From a virus (lineage: Duplodnaviria > Heunggongvirae > Uroviricota > Caudoviricetes): a DNA stretch of 47,271 nucleotides. Made by a program: the position numbers. Of the stretch, positions 30,001-36,000 are shown one piece after another. The stretch is taken from IMG/VR virus record IMGVR_UViG_2839594473_000016. One strand, 5' to 3'. Position 1 is the first letter of the stretch; the number at the start of each line of letters is the position of its first letter.

Positions 30001-33000
30001 GATTCCCCAGCACGCCAGCGCGCTCTCCTGGTCACGACGGGATACCTGACCGTAACAGTTATTTGAGCGAATACGGCAGTCCCTGCCACCGTCCTTAATC
30101 CACCAGCGAATAGCTTCGCAGGCACCTTTTCGATCTCCTGCATTAATCCGTCTGTAAAACGTCGACGGGAAACACTTACCGGGGCCAATGTTGTACGGAC
30201 AGAATGACGCAATCCCCGCTTTCTGGGGTTCGGTCAGTGGCACTCTGATGTTTTTCTCCACCCATGCCAGCGCCTTATCACGCTCAATGGCGTTAACCCG
30301 GTCGCATTTTTCCTTCGACAGCTTCATGCCAGGAATAACAGGCTTACCATCCACCCGGGTGGCTCCACGGCAGATGGTCCAGATACCCGCACCATCACGG
30401 TATGCTGTGGTGTGGTTACCTTCCTTTTCATCCAGAAACTGGTCGAGGATTTCAGGCGCAGACGCCCCTGCACCAATCAGCGCCAGAACGGCAGCCGACA
30501 GGCCGTATCTGATTTTTGCGTTCATGGATATTTATCAGGGTTTATCGATTTCAAATCCCTGGATATGTTAAGTCTTCAGGCCAGCGGTGGAGTCTTCAGA
30601 GAACCCGTAATTATTCCCGGTAGTTTTCCTCTGTAGGTTATCAACACATCCTGCGCCTCTAAAATTACGGGACGCTTTTCCGGTAACGGACCATCCCCTT
30701 CACATAACCCGGCAGCAACATCCATGAAAAACTGCTTCGCCTGCTTTTTCGCCTCAGCTTCGTAAAACTCCAGCGTGGCACCTTCAGTACGGTCAAGACT
30801 AATCGCCACATCTGGCAACAACAGTGACGGATACCCACCAATTTCCAGTGCCACAGTAACAGTAATCTTATCCGGGTAATTATTTATCCCTTTAACAACC
30901 AGTTCGTATTTTTTCTTCATCGCTTTACTCTCCCCGCGCCGCCTTACGACGGTCCTCTCTGATTTTGAAATACAGGTTAGTCAGATACGTCAGCAGGCCA
31001 AACAGCAGACTCCCCAGCACACCTATCGCCACCCACTGGGACGGAGAGACTTTGTCCAGCAGCTGCAGTAACCAGTATCCCGTCCCCACCGCTGACGTGG
31101 TGTATGACACACCCGTTGTGATTTTTTCCATCTGGTACATACCCCGTCTCCCGCAATCCGGAAGCTCACAACAACAGGAGGGGCATCAGCTCACACCGAC
31201 AGCCCCTGCGTATGGTTACATCATCATTTCGCCGCCAGGCTGAGGCTCACTGCTACCGTCAGGCTGAGACACAACGCCATCTGAAACAGCACTGTCACCC
31301 GCGCCGTCTTCAGGCTCAGGAGCAGCCGGTCCCCCCAGCAGCTCATCCAGAATGGCATCCACTTCAGCATCAAGACGCGCCTCAAGATTCTGGCGGAGTT
31401 GCTGTTTCAGTGCGCTTCTGACTTCTTCAGAGCGCAGGACGTCCTTCACTGCTTCAGCAGTGACCAGAGATTTTATTTCTGACATGGGATTTTCTCGTTG
31501 AAAGGTGTTGTTAAGAAAGTTGCTACGAAATGAGAGGCTCTTCGGGTTTTGTTCCGGCTGACTGGCTGGCGCTGATTTTTTCCGCCGCCGCGGCATCAAT
31601 CTTTTTGCGTATATAGTTCCGGATAACCTTATACCCGCCACTTACCAGATATAACGTGCACACCACCGTGCAGAAATACAATAAAATAAGCTGTACAAAT
31701 CTCATTATCCCTCCCGGTTATTGATATGGTGTTGACATCGTTAATACCTGTTGGTTAAAAAAGTGTCCTGCATGTTTTGCTTTGGATATAACGACATTTG
31801 CCGCCGGTTCTGGCTCCTTGTTTTCCCTGCCCCGGCGGCCTTTTTTTCCTGCTTACGGGTTATTCACTTCCACTGTTATACTTTCAATCAGCACCGGATA
31901 TGTCGCACCGCTAGTGATATCGGTCACGCGCAATTTGTCTGCCGTAAACGTGCCGACCGGTGACTGTGACAGCATGAACGGCGTCCCGTCCTTACCATCA
32001 ATGACCGGCGTCACCTCAATACTGTTGTTACCGGCAAAACGGAAGCCCAGCGTATGCCATTCGTTATCAAATGCGCCGAATGACCCCAGCTTCGTGTTCT
32101 GACCAGCATTTCCCTTGTGGTACATCACATTAAGGTCTGTGGCATCGCTCTGTACGTAAAACGACGCCAGCAGGTTATGACCGGCATTACCTTCCAGTGT
32201 GACGCCCTGAGGCAGTGAAGAAACCGGCCAGTACAGCGCCAGTGCGTACTGATTAGCTGTCAGTGTGCCATCAACTTTAAAACGACAACTGATAAGCCCG
32301 CCCTTCTCCAGCAGGTCTGCGCCATTACCGGCATCATGCTGCATAAACCACGAGGAACTTCCTGTCTGTTTGGTCCACCTCAGCGCCTTACCTCCTGCAG
32401 CACCTGCATCATCAACTACCAATGCACGCCCTCCTTCAGCTCCCCATCCCTGCGGATTCAGTAAACCACCTGACTCTGTTGCACGGTAATAAAGCAGCGT
32501 TGTCACTGATTTCCCGTCCGTTGACGGTGTTGATGGTGTGTCCGGTGACGGCTTCTCATCCGGCGGCATCACAACCTGTTCCCCACCCACCAGTTCAGCC
32601 GTCCGTCCTGCATGGAGAAGAATCGCTGAGGCAAGACGGTCAGAAATAATCCCCCTGCGTGCCCATGAGCTGAAATGGCTCGCACGGTCTGCTGACGTCC
32701 AGTTTGCCGACGTCCGGGAGGCCGCACCGTAATATCCTGATGCCGGAATATCCGGGTCTTCTTCCGGTTTGTTCGTCGGGACATTTGCTCCGTTCTCATC
32801 GGTCATGAACGGCACAAAGTGAATATTCTTTTCCGTTTTGTTTTTGTAACTGCCGTACACCGTCTGGTAAGTGGATTCGCTCTTCTGCTTCCAGAAATAA
32901 GTTGTGTCTCCACATATCCAGGGAACACCGTCAGCAGAACCACCAGCGCACTGTCCCACCATATCTGCAAGGTCCGTACGATATTGTTCCACTACTTCTG

Positions 33001-36000
33001 TAAAACGGGCTGTGTGATTTGCTGGCGTTCCGTCAAAGTCAAATTCCCCCTGCATCCACACCACGGCAAGCAGCACATTTTTCGGGTTCTTTGCCAGCGC
33101 GGCTTTTGTACGACCGATGAGATCCTTATACAGCGGCCTGCCCACACCCCAGCGGGTAGAACTCTCTGAGGCACCGGTCACGTCACTGTATGTTCCATCT
33201 GCCCCGGTGGTGAAAGCTGAACCACCACGGCAGCACGGAACCAGAAGAATACCCGCATTCGCCGGTATAAACGGCAGCAGCTTTTTGGCAATATGCAGCC
33301 CCTGCCCCACGGTTCCGTACTGACCTTTCGACAGGTCAGCTTTCGGATGGTTAAGACGGCTCATGTCCTGTACATCATGCAGACAGTGGTCTGCCGGAAT
33401 AATGTCGTTATATTTACAGGGAGCGCCATCCGGCGTCACTGTGCTGCGACGAGCCAGTTGCTTTATACGCGGGTCAGGACGGTCATATGTCTGCGGCAGA
33501 GGAAGCCCCTCACCGTAAGCCATGCCGTTCGACTGCCCGGCCAGTGGAATAACGTAGTAATAATCTGGCTCCGTGGTGACCACTCCCGGATAGCCACCAT
33601 CCCCCGTGCCGGGCACAACCACTGGCGTGGTCACATCCCCCTCCGCGGCAATCGCCTGCATCAGGGTATAAGGGGTTATGGCCACAGGACTACCAAACGG
33701 CTGCCAGCCCTCTTTCAGTTTGTGTGTCAGCTTTTCCGCAAGATCTGACGGCGACGCCGCCCTGACAACATCATAATGTTTAATCGACATCGAATTTCTC
33801 CCGTGTACAGGAACAGAGTTAAAAAGCCGGAACCGGAATCAAATCACAGGATGACCATCTGCCAGTGGCTGGTCGTAAAAAAAAGGCCGCGCCATGCGCA
33901 GCCGGAAATAAAGGGATAACGATGATAGTTTGAGAAAAACAGAAATAACACTTTTGTGGCAAAGCATGGTGCCGGGTGCCTCCCGGTGAATTCAGTACCA
34001 GCACCTGAATCCGCGATTATCCCATATACCTGGTTGCTGATTGCCCCTCCGCACAGGGGGATTCGCCATGCAGTAGTATTTTTAATAAACAGTAAACAAA
34101 AAAATCAAGCATTATGCAGGCTGTTTCTTTTTATCACCGGCCACAGCAATACCACAATGCCGCAGACCAGCCCCCCATCCGCCAGCACCGACATGATTCT
34201 GCTGGTGAAATCCACCATCACCACCAGAAACAGCAGGAGTGCAGCCACAGCCAGACGCAGTTTTACCGTCACAGGTAATTCTCCAGACGAAGACCCAGAA
34301 CACCGGCAATCTCTTCCAGCACCTTGCGCTCTTCCGGCTCAATTTCGCCGTCTGCCTCCGCAATGGCCACCGCCACATCCAGCACATCTTCCGCTTCACG
34401 CGTATCGTGTTTCACATCCTCGATCTCACGTAACGCCGCACGACGACCAGTTTTAAAGTTCGTATCCAGCTGACCGATAATGGTTGCGCTAATCGCATTA
34501 ATTTCTGACGTAAACGCGGACAGCGCTGGCTGATTACGCAGTACCTGTTCGATCTTCGCTTTCTAGGAAGCCTCACATTCACCATCTGCACAGGCCACCA
34601 GGTATGCGGCGTTAATCACCGCCTGTGCCAGATCGCGTTTCTCAAACTTTCCTTTTTCCGGTTAACGTGACACACCAATAACTCTTGTCGAAAAAGCCAG
34701 CAAGCAGAAAGACCGGTATTCACAACCACCAGCGCGTTTACTGTACTGGCGTGATTTCAGTCATAAAAAAACCCGCCTGGCGACGGGTGTAAAAAATCTT
34801 CTAACGTCAGGCATAAAACGCCCATCGTTAGGGCAAATTTACCACAGATTCGGGAAAAATCAACAAAGCTATCTGGTCACCTTTTTCAGTTGTTGTTCTG
34901 CCCATGCTTCTTCAATATCAAACTGCACCACCAGCGTATCGTAAAAACGTTTAACTGTTTTTTTCCATGTATCAAGAGATATGGCATCGGTTACATTACA
35001 TATGGCATTAAATGCCTCCGTTGAAGGTAATCTTTCATAGCCACGACCACCACAACGCTGGCAGTCTCTGATAACAGGCATACCACGTTTTACCGACTCT
35101 TCACGATGAATGGCAACACCGCGCCCACGAAAATCTTTACAGGCGGTGGAAACCTCCCCCTTCCCTCCACACTCCGGACAGGCAACTTTTACCACCTCCC
35201 TGACTTTTTTCCATTCCTCCCAGTAAGACGGATACACGCCTTTTGTGCACTTTGCCCACACTGGCGGCTTACCATCCGGATACTGGATCTTGTTTGTAAA
35301 AACCTCGCTTTCAATAAATTTTTTTCCGTGACAACAGGGGCACTGTTTTTTGCTCGCCGCGCTACGGGCATAATCTTCAAACGCATACGAAGCCATAATA
35401 CGCATCACTGCCGGTTTTATTTCTGCCGGGAGTTTTCTTAACGCCGCCACGCGATCACACCGACTGAGTGCATATTCTGTCAGCAATTCTGTTGCCCGCT
35501 CTCTGTCATTCATACTAATGCCCATTTTCCCAAGGAACGCAGAAAACCCCATCTCAGCCCAATTCTGTGTCATGCCCTGCGCGGCCATCACATCAGTGAT
35601 ACTCAGCGTATCTTTCGACGTTGAGGCCGATGCATCAGTCAGGCCGGGGGATTTTGGGGAGTAGTATTTCGGTAAATCTTCCAGTTTCATTTTTTGACCT
35701 GCCCTTCAAGCATTATGGGGTAAATCTTCACCCCCAGACGTCCACCAGATACTGGCTGAGCACGAACGATATTGATTTCATCAAACTGCTCATCGTCCAT
35801 TAGCAACCCCGCATGCGTCAGCGCATCCAGCGGCGCTTTCAGAATATTGTCCAGGTCACGGCGGCGCTTATCCGGTGGCTCGGCAATAATCTTTATCGCC
35901 AGCCTTCCGGACAGGCTTAATTTCAGCCGCTGCTGGCGAACAATAAGCGCCACAGCCCGGCGATAACGCTCACCGGCTTTTGATACAAAATATGTGCTGC

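Follow-up and report, generated by a model that had tools for sequence, protein, structure and literature searches.

If a lambdoid prophage of enterohaemorrhagic Escherichia coli (EHEC) carries neither Shiga toxin (Stx) genes nor tRNA genes behind its late-gene antiterminator, what fills the position that these genes occupy in Stx phages? The question is raised by IMG/VR record IMGVR_UViG_2839594473_000016, a stretch of 47,271 nucleotides from a member of the Caudoviricetes, which we refer to, at its full length, as the window. The original prediction, made from the sequence alone, had described for positions 31853-34868 a late region with nanS-p, in which a TerB-like pseudogene and a small membrane protein gene take the place of stx. 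The source of this region is clear. Positions 28780-39900 are prophage Sp6 of E. coli O157:H7 Sakai, with 0 mismatches over 11,121 bases, and positions 29780-38900 are the EDL933 (CP008957) copy of the same prophage, with 100% identity over 9,121 bases. An interval of 1121 bases separates the Q-like gene from the 645-residue open reading frame (ORF), and it matches many finished O157:H7 genomes at 100%, Sakai and EDL933 among them. In Sakai, the feature enclosing the matched stretch is labelled "prophage Sp6; lambda-like phage" (NC_002695.2, 1541611-1590033; genes ECs_1524 to ECs_1527). Sp6 is a defective prophage, yet it is spontaneously inducible and transferable (PMC2669165). We are confident that the stretch is the leader of the Q-dependent late operon in this defective lambda-like prophage, together with the operon's accessory ("moron") slot, and that it is a decayed tciAB version of the position in which a sister phage, equipped with the same Q module, has tRNAs and stx2AB. 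All genes of the slot, namely Q, the tciA remnant, tciB and nanS-p, lie on the minus strand.

The sequence holds all parts of a lambda-Q-type antitermination module: a Q of the lambda-Q family, followed by a late promoter PR' with a -10-like pause element and by a nearby intrinsic terminator. The Q gene (34869-35690, minus strand) encodes 273 residues, matches PF03589 with 164 bits and is annotated as antitermination protein Q in both Sakai and EDL933. Its product is 32% identical to lambda Q (BLASTP, E=7e-41) and matches the solved lambda Q structure (PDB 7ubm, E=1.1e-39). Directly 3' of the Q stop codon, PR' (34824-34863, minus strand) could be read from the sequence and aligned with lambda PR'. 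It consists of the -35 element TTGATT (34863-34858), a 16-nt spacer ending in TG and the -10 element TAAATT (34841-34836). The alignment revealed a conserved block, GGTAAATTTG.C..AACGATGGG, which includes the lambda -10 hexamer and the -10-like AACGAT. The latter lies at 34829-34824 and is what we take to be the sigma-70 pause signal, the counterpart of the lambda element that keeps sigma-70 at the Q-loading pause; the PR' start site predicted by analogy is A34829. The terminator tR' (34765-34788, minus strand), found by a terminator scan and by folding, has a 7-bp stem (ACCCGUC/GGCGGGU) with a GCCA loop in a hairpin at 34788-34771, and seven T's at 34771-34765. It is conserved in phage Evi and in Stx2a phages. 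The RNA from PR' to tR' folds with -21.3 kcal/mol (z=-3.0), and across 31500-35200 the scan reported 11 terminator-like sites, against 3.4 expected from shuffled sequences. From the spacing of PR' and tR', a terminated RNA of about 62-66 nt is predicted in the absence of Q. The Q-like gene, the promoter-like element and the hairpin with its U7 tract were thus all found where the original prediction had put them. A phage-82-type Q and PR', considered at first, was dropped, since the PDB and lambda comparisons place the protein in the lambda-Q family and the promoter with lambda PR'.

That this position is the one used by Stx phages is borne out directly by alignment with the Stx2a-converting phage Stx2_EH1910 (LC567834). 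Upstream of 34648 the window is 98.5% identical to that phage over 1744 bp, a stretch that contains DUF968, rusA, Q, PR', tR' and the leader. The leader 3' of tR' (34648-34764, minus strand) is common to Stx2a phages, where it precedes a 65-residue ORF; in a Megablast search, query positions 109-253 matched many of them. In Stx2_EH1910 the leader is followed by orf65 (65 residues), a DNA methylase gene, three tRNAs, stx2A, stx2B, iraM and nanS-p. The iraM-like gene of that phage (10087-10410) sits between stx2B and nanS-p in the opposite orientation, an indication that the slot can take further cargo. In the window, by contrast, neither tblastn nor blastn matched stx1 or stx2 (best E above 1), and the tRNA search found no gene. 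Sp6 is not a Stx-converting phage: it has no stxA or stxB, and no tRNA genes. The original prediction had therefore been right both on the identity of the slot and on the absence of its usual cargo.

Homology to Stx2_EH1910 stops exactly at window position 34648, and a recombination junction could be placed at 34648-34652 (CGGAAAAAGGAAAG). At the junction the left parent reads CGGAAAAGGGAAAAAG followed by ACATG, tciA reads CGGAAATTAAAAAG followed by TTTGAG, and the window reads CGGAAAAAGGAAAG followed by TTTGAG. Base-level comparison of these three sequences indicates that the join lies within a short patch of shared sequence (CGGAAA...AAAAAG). Recombination at this short homology fused the leader of the 65-residue ORF to tciA codon 18, with loss of the intervening DNA. 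As for what was lost, the closest relatives carry, between the leader and the tciA position, orf65 and the DNA methylase gene together with either tRNAs or a toxin-antitoxin pair; neither orf65 nor the methylase gene has left a trace in the window. The non-Stx phage PPyecE_EH1910, from the same strain as Stx2_EH1910, has the order orf65, methylase, toxin-antitoxin pair, tciA, tciB, nanS-p. From an ancestor built like PPyecE_EH1910, the loss of about 2.5 kb in one deletion would suffice to produce the arrangement of the window.

Could Sp6 instead be a former Stx phage, in which the deletion that truncated tciA also took the tRNA genes and stx? The sequence left of the junction is 98.5% identical to Stx2_EH1910, and the block to its right, with an STnc100 small RNA (sRNA) gene and nanS-p, is the usual neighbourhood downstream of stxB; both would fit such a history. 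What adjoins the junction on the right, however, is tciA codon 18 and not stx-proximal DNA. One deletion in the ancestor proposed above suffices without stx ever having been there, and no stx remnant is detectable. We therefore consider a toxigenic past of Sp6 unlikely.

The decayed part of the slot is the gene cut by the junction. The TerB-like frame matches Pfam TerB (PF05099) with E=1.3e-11 and 45.2 bits (cut-off 24.4) over profile positions 2-109 of 118. When compared by tblastn with the TciA of JLK-2012, it shows 97.6% identity in residues 18-143. The gene name tciA comes from phage P1. Intact 143-residue copies of TciA, 95-98% identical, are present in the lambdoid phages JLK-2012, Evi and PPyecE_EH1910; intact TciA matches the TerB structure PDB 2jxu (E=3e-7), and TciA/TerB also form PHROG 632. 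What is left in the window are codons 18-143 (34269-34649, minus strand). The remnant has neither codons 1-17 with the start codon nor a ribosome-binding site; homology begins at codon 18 (window 34649). An in-frame amber codon, TAG at 34565-34563, replaces GAG (Glu46), 28 codons past the junction. Between the upstream in-frame TAA and the start of homology there is no ATG, GTG or TTG, which is explained by the deletion of the first 17 codons. Since no complete ORF remains, the frame is a pseudogene of TciA/TerB rather than a working member of the family. On this point the original prediction, which had noted a TerB-like frame with an in-frame TAG and no start codon, agrees with PGAP, where the gene is already annotated as "tellurite resistance TerB family protein, internal stop"; the 5' truncation by 17 codons and the tciA/tciB identity had escaped it. 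The Sakai record annotates only a 48-residue C-terminal ORF, ECs_5711 ("TciA/TerB-like protein"; window 34269-34415, minus strand), which starts at a GTG. This ORF also has a PHROG family of its own, phrog_3920 (48 positions). The phrog_3920/ECs_5711 coding sequence is probably an annotation artefact that has spread from the pseudogene allele.

Immediately downstream lies tciB (34105-34272, minus strand), encoding 55 residues that match Pfam DUF3927 (PF13064; E=1.5e-16, 60.5 bits, cut-off 25) and PHROG 1470, "TciB-like" (E=1.5e-29). Hydropathy indicates two hydrophobic segments, or helices, at about residues 5-21 and 33-48. The GTG start of tciB overlaps the tciA TGA stop by 4 nt (GTGA), as had been expected of a two-helix membrane ORF coupled to the TerB-like frame, and it is preceded, 8 nt upstream, by its own GGAG. 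Being intact and having its own Shine-Dalgarno sequence, tciB is predicted to be still expressible. Codon 34 of tciB (window 34171-34173, minus strand) encodes Gly in O157:H7 and Val in all other copies examined (ADGVLV to ADGGLV).

The tciA-tciB pair is found in other phages as well. tciB directly follows tciA in P1, JLK-2012, Evi, PPyecE_EH1910 and the jumbo phage pSal-SNUABM-04, and phage 434 has tciB without tciA. tRNA genes adjoin the pair in P1, in several lambdoid phages and in the 240-kb jumbo Salmonella phage; in the examined sequences, the stretches with tRNA and tciA-tciB are L013 (P1) 361-2231, L003 2549-3543, L006 2731-3745, L014 533-1770 and L015 3107-4124. Phage Evi, which has the same Q and PR', carries three tRNA genes, for Met, Lys and Arg, behind tR', together with tciA-tciB in intact form. 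The recurrence of this neighbourhood in unrelated types of phage suggests a mobile tRNA-tciA-tciB cassette. As regards function, P1 tciA and tciB are non-essential (PMC10695390), and our literature search on TciA and TciB returned name-level mentions and no functional study. The "tellurite/colicin/cell division" label that the two proteins bear comes from similarity alone, and a PADLOC defence-system search gave no meaningful match for either of them.

The slot contains two further elements that the original prediction had left out, although all those it listed are present, with matches well beyond what chance would give. The first is an STnc100-family sRNA gene (33931-34097, minus strand), a full-length match to the covariance model RF02076 (94 bits against a gathering score of 47, E=3.5e-19). 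Folded alone, this region is no more stable than its shuffles (z=-0.75), so the case for the sRNA rests on the Rfam model and on the literature. The STnc100 block is also found 3' of stx1B in Shigella phage 75/02. It occurs 3' of stx2B too, where it overlaps the Hfq-binding sRNA EcOnc27/sRNA103 (PMC12711010; PMC12370729). A 2026 preprint ties STnc100 to the PasD sRNAs, of which TerB, Q (PF03589) and the sialate esterase are usual neighbours (bioRxiv 10.64898/2026.05.13.724894). In EDL933, "STnc100_4" (1641323, plus strand) is Northern-positive and abundant in uninduced cultures (PMC5331693). It is probably the Sp6 copy, as the sole copy listed near the locus, with coordinates about 1.2 kb off those of CP008957. 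Rfam matches to asX2 and suhB fell under their gathering scores and were treated as chance. The second element is another intrinsic terminator (33877-33903, minus strand; stem 33903-33885), found by the terminator scan, with an 8-bp GC-rich stem and a T8 tract just before the nanS-p ribosome-binding site. It is conserved in JLK-2012 and partly in Shigella phage 75/02, and the equivalent site in phage 434 is annotated as a terminator. Probably it forms the 3' end of the sRNA, and is a barrier passed by Q-modified polymerase only.

How widely is this allele distributed? Of 5426 complete E. coli genomes, 478, with non-O157 strains among them, cover at least 80% of a 241-bp stretch that takes in both the junction and the amber codon, and 403 records are at least 99% identical over the 1121-bp stretch. 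Three diverged copies from non-O157 strains (97.5-99.2% identical) were translated, and each showed the same truncation and the same TAG, with the PGAP remark "internal stop". Both lesions must consequently belong to one old allele that moved among prophages. The intact tciA 5' end is present in 789 of the 5426 genomes. One of these copies belongs to another O157:H7 prophage, where two tRNA genes are followed by tciA, tciB, nanS-p and the holin gene. Intact copies of tciA are under strong purifying selection (dN/dS about 0.01-0.03), and the truncated lineage has acquired additional amino-acid changes (Y37C, S>Y, L>Q, H>Y). This suggests relaxed constraint on the truncated lineage, where the dN/dS value is based on just 2-8 differences.

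An allele with this distribution might also be seen as something other than simple decay, namely as a variant, made of the tciA remnant, the intact tciB and the STnc100 sRNA, that has been kept and spread among lambdoid prophages. Orphan TciB would then be useful alone, or the remnant would act as a leader tuning the expression of tciB or of the sRNA. In the same vein, tRNA-tciA-tciB would be a mobile cassette of P1, lambdoid and jumbo phages, a regular alternative to stx in the slot, with a membrane function late in infection. The occurrence of the junction stretch outside O157 and the tciA-less tciB of phage 434 are compatible with this proposal. Taken as a whole, we find this proposal quite improbable.

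Still less probable, to the point of being very doubtful, is that the TerB-like frame goes on making a functional product, either by read-through or suppression of the amber codon, or by internal initiation yielding the 48-residue C-terminal fragment. It is true that the frame past the amber codon is open and without frameshifts, even in the 97.5% identical copies, that a GTG-started ORF of 48 codons is available at 34269-34415, and that phrog_3920 matches this fragment. But the start codon and ribosome-binding site were removed together with the first 17 codons, the window holds no tRNA gene and hence no suppressor tRNA, and the GTG of the short ORF has no Shine-Dalgarno-like sequence before it. 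Of the two DGxxxxxE half-domains of TerB, the 48-residue piece would retain just the second. The extra amino-acid changes of the truncated lineage, set against the low dN/dS of intact copies, and the PGAP call of a pseudogene point the same way. Finally, there is next to no chance that the TAG is a sequencing or assembly error in an otherwise intact gene: hundreds of genomes, each finished independently, have the identical stretch, the same TAG recurs in the 97.5-99.2% identical copies of unrelated strains, and the 5' truncation destroys tciA regardless. The amber codon, whose reality the original prediction had wished to see confirmed at read level, is not a read error, and such inspection is unnecessary, given that 478 complete genomes cover at least 80% of the stretch around it and that all three translated diverged copies carry it.

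Returning to the Q-dependent late operon with a decayed tciAB slot, its working may be pictured on the model of lambda. In the lysogen, PR' would fire constitutively and polymerase would halt at tR', giving an RNA of about 65 nt. Upon induction, Q would engage the polymerase paused at AACGAT, and the Q-modified polymerase would read through tR', the tciA remnant, tciB, the STnc100 gene and the second terminator, and would go on into nanS-p, the lysis genes and the structural genes. Several points weigh against this picture or against the account of the slot on which it builds. Lambda is the model for where transcription starts, for the pause, for termination at tR' and for the read-through brought about by Q, and a simple consensus promoter scan did not flag PR'. 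The abundance of STnc100_4 in uninduced cultures implies that the sRNA may have a promoter of its own; the consensus scan found no sigma-70 promoter for it, and the -10 candidates picked out by eye upstream of 34097 were all poor. tciB would need to be translated without translation of tciA upstream. Moreover, its differences in the truncated lineage are few and mostly non-synonymous, so that tciB may also be decaying.

The gene that closes the slot appears to be in good order. nanS-p (31853-33790, minus strand) encodes a prophage 9-O-acetyl-N-acetylneuraminic acid esterase of 645 residues and is annotated as a deacetylase in Sakai. Its product consists of DUF1737 (PF08410, E=3.3e-15), the esterase domain SASA (PF03629, E=4.9e-11) and the lectin-like C-terminal domain DUF6645 (PF20350, E=7e-71). 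Residues 73-391 match E. coli NanS (PDB 3pt5, E=2.5e-119), and the protein matches the NanS-p C-terminal domain (PDB 6yp6, E=9.5e-97). The motifs AGQSN (Ser87) and SHFSS (His372) are identical in the 3pt5 alignment; from the NanS structure, we take these two residues to be catalytic. NanS-p is intact and a predicted esterase, and the SASA, 3pt5 and 6yp6 matches bear out its earlier description as NanS-p-like. Of the two results that would have counted against the original prediction, a TerB-like frame with no significant TerB match and a 645-residue protein with no SGNH esterase similarity, neither was obtained. In the literature, NanS-p strips 9-O-acetyl groups from mucin sialic acids, which allows bacterial growth on them. 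nanS-p genes occur in Stx and non-Stx prophages (PMC10462455). According to a review, all EDL933 nanS-p alleles gave active esterases, the Sp6 allele not being traced individually (PMC8065619). Between nanS-p and the holin gene, two small conserved ORFs, DUF1378 (60 residues) and DUF826, occupy 31216-31705 on the minus strand. The preprint on Pas sRNAs places PasA/PasC-type sRNAs in this interval in other strains; the interval of the window gave no Rfam family match.

Outside the slot, the window holds further recognizable elements. Positions 15285-16596 are an IS3-family insertion sequence of about 1.3 kb with 26-nt terminal inverted repeats (TGAACCGCCCCGG...), which looks like IS629. It has two overlapping ORFs on the minus strand (16215-16541 and 15328-16215) and an ALIL frameshift pseudoknot at 16144-16260 (Rfam, 118 bits). 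The sok antisense RNA of a hok/sok-type toxin-antitoxin locus lies at 37721-37895 on the minus strand (Rfam, 114 bits); this locus, upstream of DUF968-rusA-Q, bears the annotation mokC/hokD in both Sakai and EDL933. At 10397-10463, on the plus strand, Rfam gives a match to sar, the antisense RNA of the P22 type (66.7 bits against a gathering score of 43).

These findings exemplify the modularity of the position behind tR' in EHEC lambdoid prophages: the Q-PR'-tR' module that drives stx2a in one phage drives a decayed tciAB pair in Sp6. Through the homologous flanks, namely the tR' leader to the left and the STnc100 block with nanS-p to the right, recombination could shift stx between prophages. 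The junction and the amber codon together make a convenient marker allele for following such exchanges. Over the slot, the sequence of Sakai and EDL933 is that of the window, and annotations already exist there for Q, the DUF3927 protein, the SASA esterase and the TerB pseudogene or remnant. The STnc100 sRNA, PR', tR' and the 5' truncation of tciA are missing from these public annotations, and public records disagree on the 48-residue remnant, which is a coding sequence in Sakai and part of a pseudogene in PGAP. Taken together with the literature, the region is already annotated or published throughout, and is an ordinary, decayed case of the accessory slot of EHEC lambdoid prophages.

Compared with lambda, the Q of the window is 66 residues longer, owing to an insertion of some 60 residues (about residues 120-180) with extra CxxC pairs. 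Pfam splits the Q domain of this protein into two stretches and adds a weak DnaJ-type zinc-finger match. The -10 element TAAATT and the initial transcribed pause element AACGATGGG are common to lambda PR' and to the window, and in both a terminator follows close downstream; the terminated RNA of lambda (6S RNA) measures 194 nt, as against about 65 nt predicted here. As a further difference from lambda, tR' and the holin gene of the window are separated by accessory genes that take up about 3 kb. P1 likewise has a TerB-family gene followed at once by a DUF3927 membrane protein of about 55 residues, with adjoining tRNA genes and an accessory role, and its TciA is 51.6% identical over the region kept in the window. 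In contrast to P1, tciA is here truncated and carries the amber codon, tciC and the tRNAs are absent, and the pair sits in a lambdoid late operon. With the EcOnc27/sRNA103/PasD family, the STnc100 copy of the window shares its place between the cargo of the slot and the sialate esterase gene, although it lies 3' of tciB instead of stx2B. The NanS-p proteins of 933W (z1466) and phi24B (vb_24B_21) have the same three-domain build and the same length of 645 residues; that of the window is an allele of a non-Stx prophage, whose C-terminal domain departs from the crystallised version at numerous positions. Finally, Stx2_EH1910 and the 933W-type phages resemble the window in having nanS-p and the lysis genes downstream and an STnc100-like block behind the cargo. 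It is the cargo that differs: orf65, the methylase gene, three tRNAs and stx2AB, plus iraM, in Stx2_EH1910, and the tciA remnant with tciB in Sp6.

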